Shown one piece after another: positions 1 to 10,317 of a stretch of DNA of 27,028 nt. The position numbers and the translations under genes were made by a program. The notes under the pieces were generated by a model. It saw only the letters and a program-made list of their open reading frames with translations, did no database searches and was not told where the DNA came from. This DNA comes from a virus. Taxonomy: Duplodnaviria > Heunggongvirae > Uroviricota > Caudoviricetes. How positions within the stretch are numbered: position 1 is the stretch's first letter; the number at the start of each line of letters is the position of its first letter. The stretch lies in IMG/VR virus record IMGVR_UViG_2579778989_000013. The stretch is one strand, 5' to 3'.

Positions 1-1530
1 CTGTGGCCCCGCCGGACCTGCTGGTCCAGCCACCCCCGGATCGCCTTTGTCACCTTTTGGCCCCGGCGCACCTGCCGGACCTGCTGGTCCAGCCACCCCC
101 GGATCGCCTTTGTCACCTTTTGGCCCCTGTGCGCCTGCCGGGCCTGCGGCTCCCGTATCCCCTTTCGGTCCCTGTGGGCCTGCCGGACCCGTATCGCCCT
201 TGTCTCCCTTCGGGCCGGGAACGCCACCACCTGCAGCAACCTCTTCTGCCTTCTGTCTCGCCGCCTTGGCCTCATCCATTGCCGCCTTCACAGCCTTCGA
301 CGTGGCAGCCTTTGTTTCGTCATTACTGGCAGTATCACTACTTAGCTGCACAATTCCCTTCTGTGCCGTCGTCGCGTCCACCACATTTGCTGCGCTGCCC
401 GCCGGACCAGGCTCCCCGCGGGGGCCCTGAGGCCCAGCTTCGCCTCGTTCACCTTTCGGACCTGCCGGACCTGTCGCACCGGCATCTCCTTTCGGTCCCT
501 GCGGCCCCGCCGGGCCTCTCTCTCCTGCAGGTCCGCGTAGCCCCTGCTCTCCCTGAGGCCCTCGTTCTCCCGGCTCACCTTTTTCACCTGCGGGACCGGC
601 TGGGCCGGGGTCACCTTTAGGTCCCGCATCACCTTTCGGCCCGGGTGGTCCCCCCGGGTCTCCGGGGGCTCCTTTTTCACCTCTGGCCCCGGTTTCACCT
701 CGTGGACCAGCAGGCCCCTGAATCCCCCGCTCTCCTTGCGGCCCCACCGGTCCTGTTTCACCGCGTGGTCCTTGTGCGCCTTGTGGACCTGTTTCTCCAC
801 GAGGGCCTGCATCACCTTTCGGTCCGGTATCACCTTTAGGGCCTCTGGCATTCTCTGCCATACGCCTGGCCTCTTCAGCACTAACCGTAGCAGCCTCAGC
901 ACGTTTAAGAACGTCTCCGGCGGCCTCATGAGCCACTCTGGCGGTTTCAGCATGTTGTCTGGCATCATTCGCGTCTGCTGCCGCGGCCTTTTCAGATTCG
1001 CATGCCCGGGTCGCCGCTTCTGCAGCTTCACTGGCTTTTTGTCCGGCTTCAGCCGCCCTGCTGGTTGCCGTCTTTGCACTGTCAGATGCACTCTTCGCAC
1101 TGGCTGCTGCACTGTCTTTTGACTGTGTGGCCTGAGTGTTTTTTGTCGCCGTGTCTTCATTCAGGCGACGAATAGTGGCAAGGTCATCAGCCACATTATT
1201 CTGTATCTGCCGGAAATCTGTCAGCAGTTCTCCGGGTATGCTCACCTCAACAAGACTGCGGCGTAACAGCATATTGAGCGTCACCGTACTTTCGGTCCCC
1301 TCAATACGCACACGTCCGTAGACAGCAGTCTTCCCTTTCACCGTCACCGAAACCGCATACTCCCCCGGATCCATCGTCATTCCGTAATATCCACCTTCAC
1401 GGGTCACTGCCGACGCACTGGTGCCGCTGAGCGCATCCGGTGAAACTGTCAGCGCCGTCAGGGTAATATTTGCTCCTGATATCGCCTCACCATCAGGAGA
1501 TTTCAGCGTCCCCGAAACAACAACACTCAC
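1..1530 (-). CDS. phage side tail fiber protein, N-terminal part (gene continues beyond window start); contains collagen-like Gly-X-Y repeats
   Basis: Minus-strand frame is open from GTG at 1530 (RBS GGAGGTGGAG just upstream) to the window edge. My translation reads [24 protein letters not shown]..., then an Ala/Ser-rich segment, then long [22 protein letters not shown]... repeats, as in lambdoid Stf-type fibers. Not in the ORF track because it has no in-window stop; track ORFs 3..620(+) and 342..1160(-) are other frames of the same repeats. Confidence 0.8.
12..125. repeat. near-perfect 63-bp tandem direct repeat (two copies) inside the collagen-like region of the tail fiber gene
   Basis: Sequence ccggacctgctggtccagccacccccggatcgcctttgtcaccttttggcccc occurs at 12-62 and again at 75-125, a period of 63 bp (21 codons). 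Confidence 0.8.
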
Positions 1531-1601
1531 ACTCCACCTCCGTTAAACACTTTTTTACGGGCAGACAATGCACTGTCTGCCCCCTGTTTGATCCCAAGTT
1601 G

Positions 1602-1773
1602 CTCAACAAAACTCTGATAATGCTGCGCAGCCACCCGCACCATCACGGTATGCCGTGGTGTGGTTACCTTCTTTTTCGTCAAGAAACTGGTCGAGGATTT
1701 CAGGCGCAGAAGCGCCCGCAGCAATCAGCGCCAGAACGACCGCTGATAAACCATAGCGGAATTTCCTGCTCAT
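1602..1773 (-). pseudogene. truncated SAR-endolysin (phage lysozyme) N-terminal fragment, about 56 codons
   Basis: ATG at 1773 lies 4 nt after the holin stop. Translation MSRKFRYGLSAVVLALIAAGASAPEILDQFLDEKEGNHTTAYRDGAG matches the signal-anchor-release N-terminus of pinholin-associated endolysins, then diverges (GCAALSEFC) and stops. The catalytic domain is absent. Confidence 0.6.
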
Positions 1774-1777
1774 CAGC

Positions 1778-1993
1778 TTACTCTCCCCGCGCCGCCTTAC
1801 GCCGGTCCTCTTTGATTTTGAAATACAGGTTAGTCAGGTACGTCAGCAGCCCAAACAGCAGACTCCCCAGCACGCCTATTGCCGCCCACTGAGACGGGGA
1901 AACCCTGTCCAGCAACTGCAGGAACCAGTAGCCCGTTCCCACCGCTGACGTGGTGTATGACACACCTGTTGTGATTTTTTCCATCTGGTACAT
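1778..1993 (-). CDS. class II pinholin (phage 21 S21-like), 71 aa with dual-start motif MYQM
   Basis: Translation [71 protein letters not shown] has the same length and architecture as S21 (two TMDs, Met1/Met4 dual start, charged C-terminus). Lies inside track ORF 1778..2047. Confidence 0.8.
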
Positions 1994-2069
1994 ACCCCGT
2001 CTCCCGCAATCCGGAAGCTCACAACAATATAAAGACCACCGGCACACACCGATGGTCCCTTGCGCATGC

Positions 2070-2315
2070 TTACATCATCATGTCGCTGTCAGGTGTAGGT
2101 TCACCGCCATCTGAAGCACTCCCGTCACCCGCGATACCTTCCGGCTCAGGAACCGCTGGTACGCCCAGCAGCTCATCCAGAATGGCATCCACTTCTGCAT
2201 CAAGACGCGACTCAAGGTTCTGGCGGAGTTTCTGTTTCAGTGCGCTCCGGACTTCTTCAGAGCGCAGGACTTCCTTCACTGCCTCAGCAGTGACCAGGGA
2301 TGTGATTTCTGACAT
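2070..2315 (-). CDS. hypothetical acidic protein (81 aa) between nanS-p and the holin
   Basis: In-frame ATG within track ORF 2070..2477, translation [30 protein letters not shown]... Same orientation as the late operon; no recognisable motif; weak RBS. Confidence 0.4.
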
Positions 2316-2340
2316 GGGATTTTCTCGCTGAAAGGGGTTG

Positions 2341-2523
2341 TTAAGGAGTAACGGGTTCTTCGGGCTTGCTTCCGGCTGACTGACTGGCGCTGATTTTCTC
2401 AGCGGCCCTTTTATCAATCTGCCTGCACCAGAAATCGCGCACAGCCCTGTACCCACCCGAAAGAAGATACAGCACACAGACCGCCGTACAGAAGTACAGC
2501 ATCACCTGATGAATAAATGTCAT
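2341..2523 (-). CDS. hypothetical small membrane protein (60 aa)
   Basis: Track ORF with a hydrophobic stretch VMLYFCTAVCVLYLLSGG (one predicted TM helix); positioned in the late operon. Confidence 0.35.
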   Translation of the reverse strand: MTFIHQVMLYFCTAVCVLYLLSGGYRAVRDFWCRQIDKRAAEKISASQSAGSKPEEPVTP

Positions 2524-2619
2524 AATTTCTTACCGTTATGGTTGACAATGAGAATTGTTTTCATTTAAAAACCAATGTACGAAAGCATCTTTTCTTTACA
2601 TTCTCCATTGGGATTACCT

Positions 2620-2656
2620 CCGCCAGCTTCCATTCCTGCCGCTGGCGGCTTTTTTT
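2620..2656 (+). terminator. intrinsic-terminator-like hairpin with T-tract, plus-strand orientation
   Basis: ccgccagc-ttccattcctgc-cgctggcgg followed by cttttttt; a TTGACA -35-like hexamer lies at about 2542-2547 upstream. Confidence 0.35.
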
Positions 2657-2661
2657 AGCAA

Positions 2662-4572
2662 TTATGCGGCTGCTCCAGCTTTGTTTGCTTTAACTTCCAC
2701 CGTATCAATAAGTACAGGGTAGGTTTCTGCACTACCTGTAATATCCGTAATGACAAACCTGTTGAGTCCATTAGCAGTATTGGCCCATTTCACCAGGTCA
2801 AACGCCTGTCCATCCACACCATCAAGCACCGGAGTAACATTAATGCTGTTACTGCCCTTAAATTTAAATGCAAGCGTATGCCAGTCATGGTCGAATGCGC
2901 CAAACGTGCCAAGTTCTTTTTGTTGATTAACTGTATGATGGTATGCAACATTAATACTGGCTTTATCTGTCTGGACAAAGAAAGAACTCAGATGGCCTTC
3001 ACCACCCTCACCCGGCCATTCCGCTATTCGCCAGTACAAACCAAAGGCATACTTGTTTCTGGTTGTCTCAAGATTGACGTTTTCGGGGATTTTAAACCGG
3101 ACAGCAATTTCTCCGCCTTTTTCCAGTAAAAGTTTTGCCTTGTCTGCAGCAATATCACAGTACATTGACCAGGATTTCGCGCTGTTATTTTTCTCAATTC
3201 GCAGAGCTTTATTGCCGCTGTCATCAACCAGTGTGCGCCTGCCATACACACCGTCCCAGCCATAGGGTTTCAGCTGATTGTCTGTAGCTTTTTTGGCATC
3301 GTAAAAAATTACAGACTCTGAGGTGGTAACCGGTCTGTCTGGAACAACCACCCCGGCAGTACCATTAACAAACGCAGAAGACTTACCCGCGCAGCTCAGA
3401 ATCGCCGTTGCCAGACGGTCGGAAATAATCCCACGGCGAGCCCATGAACTGAAATGGCTCGCCCTGTCCTGTGACGTCCAGGTGGCTGAGCTGTCACGCC
3501 ATTTCGAACCGTAATAACCGATACCCGGAATGTCCGGGTCTTCTTCCGGTTTGTTCGTCGGCACATTCACCCCGTTCTCATCGGTCATGAACGGTACGAA
3601 ATGGATATTCTTTTCCGTTTTATTTTTATAGCTGCCGTACACCGTCTGGTACGTGGATTCGTTCTTCTGCTTCCAGAAATACGTCGTGTCCCCGCATATC
3701 CAGGGAACACCGCCAGCAGAGCCACCGACGCACTGGCCTGCCATATCCGCCAGGTCTGCACGGAATTTATCAACCAGCGCACCAAACTGTGCGGCATGAT
3801 TTGCCGGCGTACCGCCAAAATCAAATTCCCCCTGCATCCACACCACGGCAAACAGCACATTTTTCGGGTTCTTCTCCAGTGCCGCTTTTGTTCGACCGAT
3901 AAGGTCCTTATACAGCGGCTTGTCCACACCCCAGCGGGTTGAATTCTCCGAGGCGCCACTCGCGTCACTGTATGTGCCATCAGCTCCGGTGGTGAACGCT
4001 GAACCACCACGACAGCACGGAACCAGCAGAATGCCCGCATTCGCCGGTATAAACGGCAGCAGTTTTTTGGCGATATGCAGCCCCTGCCCCACGGTTCCGT
4101 ACTGCCCCTTTGACAGGTCCGCTTTCGGATGGTTAAGACGGCTCATGTCCTGCACATCATGCAGACAATGGTCCGCCGGAATGATGTCGTTATATTTGCA
4201 TGCTGCACCGCCCGGTGTCACCGTACTGCGACGCGCTAACTGTTTAATACGTGGATCAGGGCTGTCGAATGTATCCGGTAATGGCAGTCCCTCACCGTAT
4301 GACATACCATTGGACTGACCAGCAAGCGCGATCACATAGTAATATTCTGGCGCAACAGAAGGCGCTGAGGTCGTCGGACGGTTGCCTGGCTCCTCTGGTG
4401 ATGAGATGCTCCCCTCACTCACAACTGGCTGGATGAACTCCGCACCATAACCAGCTGTCGAAATCAGCGCACTACCATAAGGCTGCCACCCTTCCTTCAG
4501 TTTTTGAGTTATTCGTTTCGCAAGGTCTGACGGCGACGCCGCCCTGACAACATCATAGTGTTTAAATGCCAT
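2662..4572 (-). CDS. nanS: prophage 9-O-acetyl sialate esterase NanS-p-like protein (DUF1737 N-terminus plus SGNH/GQSN esterase domain), 636 aa
   Basis: Track ORF with RBS GGAGGA before the ATG. N-terminus MAFKHYDVVRAASPSDLAKRITQKLKEGWQPYGS resembles DUF1737; the motif VIALAGQSNGMSYG is the GQSN esterase signature. Size and position (between Q and the holin) match nanS-p genes of Stx-type prophages. Confidence 0.8.
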   Translation of the reverse strand: MAFKHYDVVRAASPSDLAKRITQKLKEGWQPYGSALISTAGYGAEFIQPVVSEGSISSPEEPGNRPTTSAPSVAPEYYYVIALAGQSNGMSYGEGLPLPDTFDSPDPRIKQLARRSTVTPGGAACKYNDIIPADHCLHDVQDMSRLNHPKADLSKGQYGTVGQGLHIAKKLLPFIPANAGILLVPCCRGGSAFTTGADGTYSDASGASENSTRWGVDKPLYKDLIGRTKAALEKNPKNVLFAVVWMQGEFDFGGTPANHAAQFGALVDKFRADLADMAGQCVGGSAGGVPWICGDTTYFWKQKNESTYQTVYGSYKNKTEKNIHFVPFMTDENGVNVPTNKPEEDPDIPGIGYYGSKWRDSSATWTSQDRASHFSSWARRGIISDRLATAILSCAGKSSAFVNGTAGVVVPDRPVTTSESVIFYDAKKATDNQLKPYGWDGVYGRRTLVDDSGNKALRIEKNNSAKSWSMYCDIAADKAKLLLEKGGEIAVRFKIPENVNLETTRNKYAFGLYWRIAEWPGEGGEGHLSSFFVQTDKASINVAYHHTVNQQKELGTFGAFDHDWHTLAFKFKGSNSINVTPVLDGVDGQAFDLVKWANTANGLNRFVITDITGSAETYPVLIDTVEVKANKAGAAA

Positions 4573-4765: not shown

Positions 4766-4794
4766 GCCCGCGTCTCCCAGCGCGGGCTTTTTTG
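4766..4794 (+). terminator. intrinsic terminator hairpin, plus-strand orientation, in the Q-nanS intergenic region
   Basis: gcccgcg-tctcccag-cgcgggc followed by ttttttg; a second hairpin agcccctc-cgga-gaggggct lies at 4805-4824. Confidence 0.4.
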
Positions 4795-5055
4795 TCCATA
4801 AGAAAGCCCCTCCGGAGAGGGGCTGGAGAGTGGCGCTATGTGCCATTGCATGGTGCCGGGTGCCTCCCGGTGAGTTCAGCCCGGTGCCACTAAACCCGCG
4901 TCATTCTCGTTTTGATAATCAGAGATTATACCGTCACCAGTCGCCCCTCCGCTCAGGGGGATTCACCATGCAGTTTTTTTCTAACAAATTCTCATCCGGG
5001 CAGACAACATTCAACTGACTTAATTGTGAGGTATGTAACATTCCTGTTGAACGGA

Positions 5056-7285: not shown

Positions 7286-7951
7286 TCAGAATTCAAATTG
7301 TCTTGCCCGCAGGCTTTTCAGCATTGGCATGGCCCGCTGGATAACGGAACTTGACATGTCGAGACGTGTTACCTCCCTTAGTAGCGCGTCTCTGTTCTTC
7401 GTCACCATGTAGATGGTCTCAAACGCAATGTCATACAGCTTGTTCGTGTATGAGGAGTTCAGCTCTTTCATAATGGGATACAGGTGTTTGCTGAGGTCCT
7501 GGGCTTTTTCCATCCAGAGCTGCATGTAGCAAAGGAGGATGATTTCTTCGGCTGTGAATTGTGGCTGAATCTGCGGCTGCTGTTCGGTTGGTGCTGTTTT
7601 TCCCTGGCTGAAATAGCAGTCTTCCAGTTTTTCGAATACCTCCCACGCCCGATCGGTTTCGAGCATTTTTGCGTGACGGGCTGCGCCGCGTTCTGTCCAG
7701 AGGATGAGGGAGCGGGCATTTTTACCAACTAACCCGATTGTTTCGGGTCTGTTCTTAAACTCGCGTAATTCGTTTTTTTCAATTTTAAAGTAATGCTTTC
7801 CGGGCATGAATCGCGTCGTGTTGTTCAGAAAGTTATCAGAAATGTTTTTGATTTTTGTTCCGTAAAGGTGAGCCAACAGTTCAGTAGTAATTACGGGGAT
7901 CTGGTTATAGGTAACAGGGGAAAGGTTTTCGACAGAAATTTGAACAGCCAT
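7286..7951 (-). CDS. ORF6N/KilA-N-like domain protein (antirepressor-like), 221 aa
   Basis: N-terminus PVITTELLAHLYG...FMPGKHYFKIEKNELREFK...LWTERGAARHAKMLETDRAWEVFEKLE follows the ORF6N pattern; RBS GAGGT. Confidence 0.6.
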   Translation of the reverse strand: MAVQISVENLSPVTYNQIPVITTELLAHLYGTKIKNISDNFLNNTTRFMPGKHYFKIEKNELREFKNRPETIGLVGKNARSLILWTERGAARHAKMLETDRAWEVFEKLEDCYFSQGKTAPTEQQPQIQPQFTAEEIILLCYMQLWMEKAQDLSKHLYPIMKELNSSYTNKLYDIAFETIYMVTKNRDALLREVTRLDMSSSVIQRAMPMLKSLRARQFEF

Positions 7952-8112
7952 AATGACCTCGCGTTTCGATAATTTTTACCTCGCCACCGTCAGGTGCTAA
8001 TCATCGTGGTGGCGAACTGTGCGGGGTTAGCACTACCGGTCGAAACATCCGGCGAGCCTTTCGGCTCCCCCACACAGCCCGCCATAAATCGCGAATGTGA
8101 CTGTGCTTAGCG

Positions 8113-8136
8113 CATAAAAAAACCGCCAGCGCGGTT
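8113..8136 (-). terminator. intrinsic terminator on the minus strand
   Basis: Minus-strand hairpin aaccgc-gcug-gcgguu followed by uuuuuuuaug. Confidence 0.5.
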
Positions 8137-8293
8137 ATGCACCGTTTCGATATCCGGGGTGCTAATCCCGACGCCAGGTTTTGCTGGCGCGTGAGGAATA
8201 TAGCCCCGAACACGCGACGTTGTCAAACTGATGGCATTGCAGATCCCTACGCAATGTAACACTATGTGTTATACATTAATAACGGAACAAAAA

Positions 8294-8601
8294 ATGCGCA
8301 TTTTTAAAAACGCCTGGTTTGAGCGACTTGCACGCAAAACAAAATATCCGACCAATCACTGCGCGAAATTGTTAAACAGGCTGATAACGGGCTTATCTCA
8401 GCAAACCTGGGTAACGGCGTTATCAAGCAACGTCTGCCACGAGTCGGTGGCGGCAAATCTGGCGGTTATCGCACAATCATTTTCTATCGCGTCGGCACAA
8501 GGGCCTTTTTCGTATATGCATACGCAAAAAATGAACGTGAAAATATAACCGCTACTGAGGAAAGTGCATTTCGGAAGGGGCTCCTCACGTACTCAATCTA
8601 A
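8294..8601 (+). pseudogene. RelE/ParE-superfamily (HigB-like) toxin gene disrupted by a frameshift
   Basis: N-terminal frame MRIFKNAWFERLARKTK... (track ORF 8231..8548). The conserved toxin core KISDQSLREIVKQADNGLISANLGNGVIKQRLPRVGGGKSGGYRTIIFYRVGTRAFFVYAYAKNERENITATEESAFRK is in the -1 frame and ends at stop 8599-8601. The frames meet in the A-run around 8339-8345. Confidence 0.6.
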
Positions 8602-8655
8602 CAGATGAACAACTGGCACAACTGATTCTACAGGGTCAGTTTACGGAGGTACCCA

Positions 8656-8973
8656 ATGAGTAAAAATTACCGCAGTGATGCGCTTGCATCCGTACATGAA
8701 ATGATGGAATCGCTTCATGATATCGGCGCAGTAACGAAACAGACTATGCGAGAATTCGATGAAACTTGTCTCCAGCCAGCGCCGGTAATGTCTCCGGAAA
8801 GGATCCGTGCACTGCGCGAACGAGAGCATCTGTCTCAACCTGTTTTTGCCAGATACCTCAACGTCAGTAAAAACCTGATATCAGACTGGGAACGTGGTGT
8901 AAAACGGCCGGGAGGTGCCGCTCTTCGCCTTCTTTCAGTCGTAGAGAAAAACGGAATCCAGGTAATATCATGA
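8656..8973 (+). CDS. HTH (XRE-family) antitoxin partner of the HigB-like toxin
   Basis: Track ORF; C-terminal HTH PERIRALREREHLSQPVFARYLNVSKNLISDWERGVKRPGGAALRLL; follows the toxin by about 55 bp in HigB-HigA order. Confidence 0.7.
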   Translation: MSKNYRSDALASVHEMMESLHDIGAVTKQTMREFDETCLQPAPVMSPERIRALREREHLSQPVFARYLNVSKNLISDWERGVKRPGGAALRLLSVVEKNGIQVIS

Positions 8974-9023: not shown

Positions 9024-9509
9024 TTAGTTTTGCTGTTCTATTTTAAGCTTGATAGTTTCATACAAAACAACAGTTGCGCCTGTTTTACATAATTCCCGGC
9101 CGTCATACGCACGAGACCAATAACACAACCAGTTCTCGAGATCTTCTCGAGTATAGGTTTTGCAGGCCAGTCCCTCTGCCATTTCCACGATTTCATCGCC
9201 TGGTGCTGTTAACTCATAGCCATTCAACAACAAGAAGACATAACCAGCCATCATAGCTGTTCGTTTGTTTGCATTAGCAAATGGATGATTCTGAATCAGA
9301 CTTTCAATCAATACTGATGCCAGTACAAACATGTCATTAGTCTGTTCATACCATCGAACCATGCTGGGACGAGACTGAGAAGAACTTAAATTATCAACAC
9401 TCAGCACACTAACAGGTTCATCTGGTGTTTGAAGCTCAATTAAAAGGCGATTAATTTCGGTAAGATCATCAAACGAAAGGTAGTGCACTCCTTCAACAAT
9501 ATCAGCCAT
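9024..9509 (-). CDS. doc: Doc (death-on-curing)/Fic-family toxin, 161 aa
   Basis: Motif HPFANANKRTA fits the Doc-type signature HxFx(D/N)(A/G)NKR rather than the Fic motif HPFx(D/E)GNGR. ATG at 9509 inside track ORF 9024..9518. Confidence 0.75.
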   Translation of the reverse strand: MADIVEGVHYLSFDDLTEINRLLIELQTPDEPVSVLSVDNLSSSQSRPSMVRWYEQTNDMFVLASVLIESLIQNHPFANANKRTAMMAGYVFLLLNGYELTAPGDEIVEMAEGLACKTYTREDLENWLCYWSRAYDGRELCKTGATVVLYETIKLKIEQQN

Positions 9510-9527
9510 AGAGCACAATACCCATCA

Positions 9528-9707
9528 TTACACTTTTGAAAGTTCTTCCATTGCCTTCTCGTAACGAGAAAAACCGAAATCGAAAGCATTTTTCACCTGC
9601 TCACGATGAGTGCAATTTTCATCGATAGCCGGGCGCGGAGCTGCCACAACGCTTTTATCGCGAGGGGGAATAGTCAATCGCGGGTGTTTTTTTAGTGCGT
9701 AGCTCAT
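9528..9707 (-). CDS. putative antitoxin partner of Doc (unrecognised family), 59 aa
   Basis: Small ORF whose stop (9528-9530) lies 18 nt upstream of the doc ATG; translation MSYALKKHPRLTIPPRDKSVVAAPRPAIDENCTHREQVKNAFDFGFSRYEKAMEELSKV. Assignment rests on position only. Confidence 0.4.
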   Translation of the reverse strand: MSYALKKHPRLTIPPRDKSVVAAPRPAIDENCTHREQVKNAFDFGFSRYEKAMEELSKV

Positions 9708-9822
9708 TGGGTGTACCCTTACTTCTCCGTCCTGTTCTTTAACAAAAATCAAGTCAATACAAAATTAGTCAGGCTAATGTTGTTAGCATAGCCTAATACC
9801 AATCGTATTCACAACCACAGTA

Positions 9823-9916: not shown

Positions 9917-10072
9917 TTACTCCTCAGGTTCGTAAGCTGTGAAGACAGCAACCTCCGTCTGACCGGTTCGGATTCGTACCTCGCAGAGGTCTTTCCTCGT
10001 TACCAGTGCCGTCACTACGACGGTAATACAGATGACGATCAGGGCGACTAACATCGCCTTTTGCTGCTTCAT
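9917..10072 (-). CDS. hok: Hok/Gef-family type I toxin (51 aa)
   Basis: Translation MKQQKAMLVALIVICITVVVTALVTRKDLCEVRIRTGQTEVAVFTAYEPEE closely matches the HokD/RelF sequence as I recall it. An in-frame upstream ATG at 10129 gives a Mok-like leader (track ORF 9917..10129). Fold-back hairpins lie in the leader at about 10190-10230. Confidence 0.85.
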   Translation of the reverse strand: MKQQKAMLVALIVICITVVVTALVTRKDLCEVRIRTGQTEVAVFTAYEPEE

Positions 10073-10317
10073 AGCCTGCTTCTCCTTGCCTTTCGGCGCG
10101 TAAGAGGCTAACCTACATGTGTCTAGCATGAAATTGGCCTCAGATTAATGTTAGGCGTCTTGCAGGACGCGTAATGTTAACTGGGGCTTTTCTCTGTCTG
10201 CCTTACGGTGGCATGCCCGAGGCAGACAGCCTCAAGCACCCGCAGCAATTCTACTTAACTCTCGCTTTACCGCAAACCGTTTTTACCCGATATGGGAATT
10301 CCCATATCGTAATGAAT

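Follow-up and report, generated by a model that had tools for sequence, protein, structure and literature searches.

When a toxin gene is broken and the antitoxin gene next to it is whole, one must ask whether the break is real, whether the toxin could still be made by some other route, and why the antitoxin has been kept. These questions are raised by a two-gene toxin-antitoxin (TA) operon, toxin gene first, which lies on the plus strand at 8294-8973 of the 27,028-nucleotide stretch of phage DNA analysed here (IMG/VR record IMGVR_UViG_2579778989_000013; hereafter the window). We put forward, with a probability of about 0.9, that this is a decayed type II TA operon of the HigB2/HigA2 kind (PF06296), located within the nin region of an Escherichia coli prophage of lambdoid type, and that its toxin gene is a true pseudogene inactivated by two independent 1-nt deletions. 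The features on which the argument draws are collected in table 1.

Table 1. Features in and around the toxin-antitoxin operon of the window
Feature	Positions	Strand	Basis
sRNA STnc100, further upstream in the late region	4794-5000	-	169 bits
ORF6N/P22AR antirepressor gene, with isrK / C4 antisense RNA cassette upstream	7286-7951	-
C4 antisense RNA	8005-8089	-	Rfam gathering-level match
isrK	8116-8190	-	Rfam gathering-level match
c4 a1/b1 target element	8151-8203	-	Rfam gathering-level match
Near-consensus promoter, TTGACA-18-TATATT	8226 to 8197	-	Promoter scan
Toxin pseudogene segment 1, codons 1-15 (MRIFKNAWFERLARK)	8294..8338	+	Translation; identical to intact N-terminus except F12L
ORF beginning at the toxin ATG, 15 native residues followed by 69 out of frame, ending at TAA 8546-8548	8294..8548	+
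First lesion, A4 run against A5 in intact alleles, -1 frame change	8336..8339	+	Alignment with 2013C-3033, HCP4S3_I4 and L031
Toxin pseudogene segment 2 (core), codons 17-95 + first base of codon 96	8341..8578	+	Translation, tblastn
Second lesion, one C deleted in codon 96	between 8578 and 8579	+	Alignments with intact alleles
Toxin pseudogene segment 3, codons 97-123 (APHVLNLTDEQLAQLILQGQFTEVPNE), ancestral stop TAA 8661-8663	8580..8663	+	Third frame; tblastn
GGAGG Shine-Dalgarno, 6 nt 5' of the antitoxin ATG	8645..8649	+	Sequence read
Antitoxin, 105 aa, C-terminal XRE-type HTH, HigA2-like, intact	8656..8973	+	ORF; ATG overlaps ancestral toxin stop
Intact Doc (death-on-curing) toxin, Fic domain	9024-9518	-	TIGR01550, E 1.4e-35
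Small ORF upstream of Doc	9528-9752	-	No Pfam/NCBIfam match; RefSeq: shorter, 59-aa 'hypothetical protein'
sok antisense RNA	10067-10241	-	117 bits

Reading Frames of the Toxin Gene

Three-frame translation places the opening of the toxin reading frame at ATG 8294, from which MRIFKNAWFERLARK is encoded, and the conserved core of the protein (KISDQSLREIVKQ...AYAKNERENI, including ...KISDQSLREIVKQADNGL...GGGKSGGYRTIIFYRVGTRAFFVYAYAKNERENITATEESAFRK) in the -1 frame relative to that ATG. An earlier note on this DNA had described precisely this displacement of the core from the N-terminus, and both the translation and a tblastn search agree with it. The same search goes further, since residues 1-15, 15-96, and 95-123 of the intact toxin match the window in three different frames, the core segment (residues 15-96) with 97.6% identity. 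The toxin is thus distributed over three frames and not two, and the single lesion of the earlier note has to be supplemented with a second 1-nt deletion (a C, 8578/8579) that it had missed, which shifts the last 27 toxin codons (APHVLNLTDEQLAQLILQGQFTEVPNE and the stop, 8580-8663) to the third frame. The first junction between frames is the run AAAACAAAAT; the earlier note had named this run correctly but placed it at about 8339-8345 instead of 8336-8345. The second junction is CGGAAGG/GGCTCC, at 8572-8584. The core frame is limited upstream by TGA 8320-8322 and ends downstream at TAA 8599-8601 after a non-native tail, GLLTYSI; between these two stops it contains no ATG, GTG, or TTG. The native toxin therefore lacks a single open frame of about 120 aa with its own start: its sequence lies in three frames, and the core is startless. 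For these reasons we regard the gene as a pseudogene of PF06296 and not as a functional member of the family.

Family Assignment of Toxin and Antitoxin

With both deleted bases put back, and only then, the toxin matches the Pfam family PF06296 (RelE) over its full length (positions 1-120 of 120, E 5.5e-46, with a score of 156.1 bits where 27 would suffice). This is the only Pfam family found at E <= 0.01 for the repaired toxin; the classical HigB families PF05015 (HigB-like) and PF09907 (HigB) gave no match, and NCBIfam yielded no model for the toxin. PF06296 comprises HigB2-type toxins, which act by ribosome-dependent mRNA degradation and whose genes precede those of their antitoxins (PMC11980606). 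The same arrangement is found here, the toxin gene being upstream of an HTH antitoxin gene and overlapping it (TAA 8661-8663 and ATG 8656, ATGAGTAA). The closest solved structures are those of Vibrio cholerae HigB2 (E 0.004, toxin) and HigA2 (E 7.9e-8, antitoxin HTH; PDB 5JA8, 5JA9, 5JAA, 5J9I), a system with which the window has in common both the toxin family and the upstream position of the toxin gene. HigA2 residues 39-93 align with residues 45-99 in the C-terminal HTH of the window antitoxin, whereas the similarity of HigB2 to the E. coli toxin is remote and confined to residues 41-91. The E. coli toxin furthermore has a longer C-terminus than HigB2 (123 vs. 110 aa), and in the window its gene is a pseudogene. 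As judged from the sequence, the name "HigB-like" used in the earlier note is acceptable in the HigB2/PF06296 sense only, not in that of classical HigB; the other parts of its description, a split toxin and an intact antitoxin, are borne out by the translation and by the 105-aa antitoxin ORF.

The antitoxin protein matches HTH_3 at residues 50-94 (E 1e-7), its 32.3 bits exceeding the cut-off of 23. Its residues 1-44, the segment that would bind and neutralise the toxin in a HigA2-like antitoxin, are also present and moderately conserved, with a mean identity of 63% across 79 loci of other species and zero PDB match for that part. The window protein is identical to WP_000042397.1, the partner of the intact toxin in E. 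coli HCP4S3_I4, and differs by a single amino acid from the partner of WP_001217944.1, the O145/O157-type toxin.

Comparison with Intact Alleles

Uninterrupted toxin genes of 372 nt, encoding 123 aa, occur in E. coli strains 2013C-3033 (WP_106894428.1) and HCP4S3_I4 (WP_077168034.1; antitoxin WP_000042397.1), where the locus and its neighbours are as in the window: the ORF6N antirepressor is shared and, in HCP4S3_I4, hokD as well. At the first junction the intact close alleles read CGCAAAAACAAAAT, with an A5 run, and the window reads CGCAAAACAAAAT, with A4; at the second they read CGGAAGGCGGCTCC and the window CGGAAGGGGCTCC. Given these readings in the intact genes, the window has suffered two 1-nt deletions, of an A in the A5 run and of the C in codon 96. 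The intact copies, unlike the window, thus form one 372-nt ORF whose stop overlaps the antitoxin start. Apart from the two deleted bases, F12L, and one synonymous change, the HCP4S3_I4 toxin gene shows no difference from that of the window, and the toxin DNA of 2013C-3033 shares 97.0% identity with that of the window once both lesions are repaired.

Comparison with intact homologues, which the earlier note had itself proposed, therefore yields single ORFs and not genes that are naturally two separate ORFs. It also alters the expected product. The earlier note held that one added A would restore a continuous toxin of about 101 aa; such an addition gives only 96 native residues followed by GLLTYSI and a stop, so that the figure of about 101 aa corresponds roughly to this truncated product, the intact toxin having 123 aa.

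Distribution of the Lesions in E. coli

A megablast search of 5,426 complete E. coli genomes returned matches to the locus in 217, and all locus copies in these were chromosomal. A plasmid origin was considered and rejected, with zero matches in PLSDB. Among phage records there was one match, PhiR12_3, which carries the A4 run and in which the window's 84-aa out-of-frame product is annotated as a "hypothetical protein."

Thirty-eight of the complete genomes carry the window's allele, and these were sorted by the match length of short queries across each lesion. Six are intact at both sites and ten have the A deletion only (FORC_069 aligned directly). Twenty, including O104:H4 strains, have the same match length as the window at both sites (AST198 and O104:H4 2011C-3493 aligned directly). 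The remaining two have a run of A5 length and are one base shorter than the window around 8578; the one that was aligned carries the C deletion together with deletion of an A at 8561. The A4 run is thus found in 30 of the 38 genomes, which come from many independent projects, and in seven IMG/VR contigs besides. IMG/VR contigs also supply alleles with the C deletion alone, and one allele (L039) with an extra 6-nt deletion. All four combinations of the two lesion sites occur. On this ground we discarded a simple order of events in which the C deletion arose only on alleles that had already lost the A; the lesions must have been shuffled by recombination or have arisen recurrently.

These counts bear directly on the suggestion, also made in the earlier note, that the frameshift is a homopolymer sequencing or assembly error in a genome whose toxin is really intact. 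Short A-runs are a typical place of long-read indel errors, and the first lesion does sit within such a run. Against this, the identical A4 recurs in PhiR12_3, in the seven IMG/VR contigs, and in 30 complete genomes that were sequenced by many laboratories on many platforms; the second lesion, a C lost between two GG pairs, is no homopolymer slip and is present in 20 complete genomes; and haplotype-specific SNPs travel with the lesions. Recurrence across independent projects excludes an artefact, and we attach practically no probability to one. What stood of the earlier note is its first option, an inactivating deletion with the antitoxin kept: the A4 allele is genuine, and its A5 counterpart with a 372-nt gene exists in six genomes. 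The qualification "recent" fits less well, as the lesion occurs on several different prophage backgrounds, where other lesions accompany it.

Decay of the toxin gene extends beyond the two deletions. Within a toxin remnant carrying both of them, E. coli O10:H32 NMBU-W12E19 has an IS66-family element (tnpA, tnpB, tnpC; positions 1022-3664 of locus copy L010), and the adjoining antitoxin is intact. The amino-acid changes F12L, R14H, and E89A, the only ones found, are restricted to dead alleles. Overall, at least six distinct toxin lesions were seen at this prophage locus across E. coli, and zero antitoxin lesions.

Second Allele and Other Species

A second E. coli allele, identical to the window's at 77% of toxin DNA, 85% of toxin protein, and 99% of antitoxin protein positions, is present in 169 genomes, including O157, O145, and O26 strains. 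It is affected by a recurrent lesion of its own, one extra G in GATAAGGGG (locus copies L006 and L007), which splits the toxin into pieces of 40 and 85 aa. An identity of 95-99% was obtained for 56 of the 169 genomes; of the 20 rows listed from this group, 19 exceed the query by one base, and in many of them the toxin is annotated by PGAP in two parts. The longer rows and the PGAP splits together fit an extra G in the G-run, which we estimate to be present in roughly 50 of the 169.

The survey of other species took one genome per species, with loci anchored on the antitoxin, and left 77 usable loci. The toxin is intact in 46-49 of these; 8 loci have a frameshifted toxin, 11 a truncated one, and 1 a toxin with a stop, and 8 have no toxin. 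Toxin loss of this kind, in E. coli and in other species, agrees with what surveys have reported on the erosion of TA systems and on orphan antitoxins (PMC13617665, PMC10790755).

Two side observations concern conservation within the pair. The antitoxin is closer to its E. coli counterpart than is the toxin in 49 of 49 intact-toxin pairs (loci L058-L137; mean 75% vs. 60% aa), a comparison that is biased, the antitoxin having served both to find the loci and to rank them. An antitoxin more conserved than its toxin is unusual for TA pairs. Within the antitoxins of other species, conservation is higher in the HTH half (83%) than towards the N-terminus (63%).

The two genes of the window also differ in their affinities. 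For the toxin, the nearest relative is the 2013C-3033 allele (97% nt), whereas the antitoxin most resembles that of the O145-type allele (92.6% nt, with a single amino-acid difference) and shares only 85.8% nucleotide identity with that of 2013C-3033. The affinity changes sharply some 108 nt downstream of the antitoxin start. Such mosaic affinities (with respect to L005, L006, and L004) indicate recombination inside the operon.

Can a Toxin Still Be Produced?

The earlier note had mentioned, as a less likely option, a frameshift-dependent expression switch. In its most explicit form, tRNA-Lys on AAA 8342-8344 would slip to AAA 8341-8343, a programmed -1 frameshift giving a low, regulated level of toxin. 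Perfect re-pairing is indeed possible on A_AAA (8341-8344) and, from a reading of the sequence, alleles with the A deletion only would then give a 123-aa toxin differing by N16T only. The window, however, would require a second shift at 8578. The zero frame, CGC AAA ACA AAA TAT, offers only the four-base A_AAA slip and no X XXY YYZ heptamer, a Shine-Dalgarno-like stimulator is absent upstream, and the downstream RNA (8346-8420) is no more stably folded than its shuffled versions (-13.8 kcal/mol, the shuffles averaging -15.25; z = +0.54). Nor is the arrangement conserved among homologues: the gene is uninterrupted in the 6 close alleles, in the 113 second-allele genomes without an indel in the G-run, and in the 46-49 of 77 species, and the lesions vary by lineage. 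Finally, additional indels, an IS element, and amino-acid substitutions have accumulated on the dead alleles, in keeping with a gene that is no longer read. The switch is therefore unsupported, and we consider it extremely improbable.

Equally in need of consideration is a truncated toxin, initiated at an internal non-canonical start and retaining some activity. This finds a basis in RefSeq, where PGAP annotates "RelE/ParE family toxin" CDSs of 68, 85, and 112 aa on these alleles, contrary to a pseudogene. Yet the starts so annotated are ATC, ATA, and ATT, Shine-Dalgarno sequences were not seen before them, and the core frame of the window has no standard start codon. The product would moreover miss Pfam model positions 1 to about 16 as well as the conserved C-terminal 27 residues. 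An active product of this kind seems to us very unlikely. The CDSs concerned are L001 1696-1902, L002 1627-1965, and L003 1640-1897 (equivalent to 8395, 8326, and 8344 of the window onwards), which begin with ATC, ATT, and ATA, respectively (WP_228355587.1, WP_226867305.1, WP_309487867.1).

Under the decayed-operon reading that we prefer, ribosomes starting at ATG 8294 would make an 84-residue product of which the first 15 residues alone are native. With a start codon unavailable to the core and the C-terminal 27 residues lost, no active mRNA-cleaving toxin would be expected from the window. The complete antitoxin gene, by contrast, has its own GGAGG and is thus translatable without coupling to the toxin; the antitoxin is probably made from this Shine-Dalgarno sequence, and its production would be independent of translational coupling.

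Operon Control and Prophage Context

Upstream of 8294 on the plus strand, a simple promoter scan found, at its thresholds, zero sigma-70 consensus; transcription as an operon is accordingly an assumption. No convincing operator palindrome was found in 8180-8300. A 6-bp inverted repeat at 8235-8256 (CATTGC-N10-GCAATG) was considered but taken as chance, being broken in HCP4S3_I4 at 8251. By means of its HTH domain, the antitoxin presumably continues to repress the operon promoter.

The window is a mosaic lambdoid prophage, whose best whole-window match is to an E. coli chromosome (86% of the query, 98.5% identity); its O104:H4 relative adjoins ynfH. The TA remnant is located in the nin region between the ORF6N/P22AR antirepressor gene and the gene of a Doc toxin, beyond which hok/sok follows. 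The RNA elements at 8005-8203, directly upstream of the antirepressor gene, together with the minus-strand promoter at 8226-8197, look like a P1/P7 immI-like antisense control cassette with transcription divergent from the TA operon. The small ORF at 9528-9752 may encode a Phd-like partner of Doc. Since hokD is annotated in related genomes at the position equivalent to that of the sok match, a third toxin-antitoxin module lies within about 2 kb.

Retention of the Antitoxin

Among 60 evenly sampled rows of the 217 genomes, the antitoxin is without net length change in every one: 56 aligned over the full 318 nt and the remaining 4 as far as the point where the 3' end diverges, and all 60 have an annotated HTH protein. 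One explanation is that the orphan antitoxin is actively maintained and has not just escaped decay so far, either by protecting the lysogen or prophage, in an anti-addiction or anti-defence role, against HigB2-family toxins of competing lambdoid phages or by regulating other genes. Several observations point in this direction. The dead-toxin alleles examined have zero antitoxin lesions against at least four secondary toxin lesions; the antitoxin is identical to, or 1 aa different from, the partners of intact toxins in other E. coli prophages; and some genomes have two copies of the locus. Outside E. coli, 30 of 79 loci have a full-length antitoxin without an intact toxin, as conserved as the paired ones (74.4% vs. 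75.1%), and trans-acting roles have been proposed for orphan antitoxins (PMC10790755). However, the statistical case is weak: by our own arithmetic, neutrality would leave the antitoxin free of at least four secondary lesions with a P of about 0.08. Because the loci were found through the antitoxin, decayed antitoxins would be invisible. Sequence divergence since the death of the toxin is also very small, and O104:H4 genomes have one copy of the locus only and so no resident toxin to neutralise. Polymorphism adds little, as the 3 of 3 synonymous changes in the antitoxin come from a set of dead alleles chosen for an identical antitoxin protein, which biases the contrast of synonymous and nonsynonymous changes between toxin and antitoxin and makes it suggestive only. 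On balance we regard active maintenance as possible but rather unlikely.

Saavedra De Bast and colleagues, as cited in PMC13617665, are said to have described chromosomal anti-addiction modules in 2008. By analogy, a resident antitoxin could neutralise a related incoming toxin, and the leftover antitoxin of the window could do so with closely related toxins from other lambdoid phages. The more specific proposal that it has been kept as a stand-alone immunity factor, against HigB2-family toxins that rival lambdoid phages carry or that serve the host in abortive-infection defence, is in our opinion doubtful.

Implications

Loss of the toxin with survival of the antitoxin is an already known and expected route of TA decay, and the biological novelty of the locus is accordingly small. 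Toxin-first erosion of chromosomal TA systems has been documented in a survey of Photorhabdus (PMC13617665), and orphan antitoxins are abundant in a survey of E. coli (PMC10790755). Truncated or frameshifted toxins, persisting antitoxins, and independent recurrent lesions are found there as here; nothing essential differs, and the present locus is one more instance, borne by a prophage. The exact allele of the window is present in many public genomes, including those of O104:H4 outbreak strains. Because the remnants appear as toxin CDSs in the PGAP annotation, any census of TA systems that relies on annotated toxins will record a complete pair at this locus. The prophage locus is, in addition, a convenient natural series for testing selection on orphan antitoxins. 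Should the antitoxin prove to be an immunity factor, the repeated loss of the toxin with retention of the antitoxin in these prophages would be adaptive.
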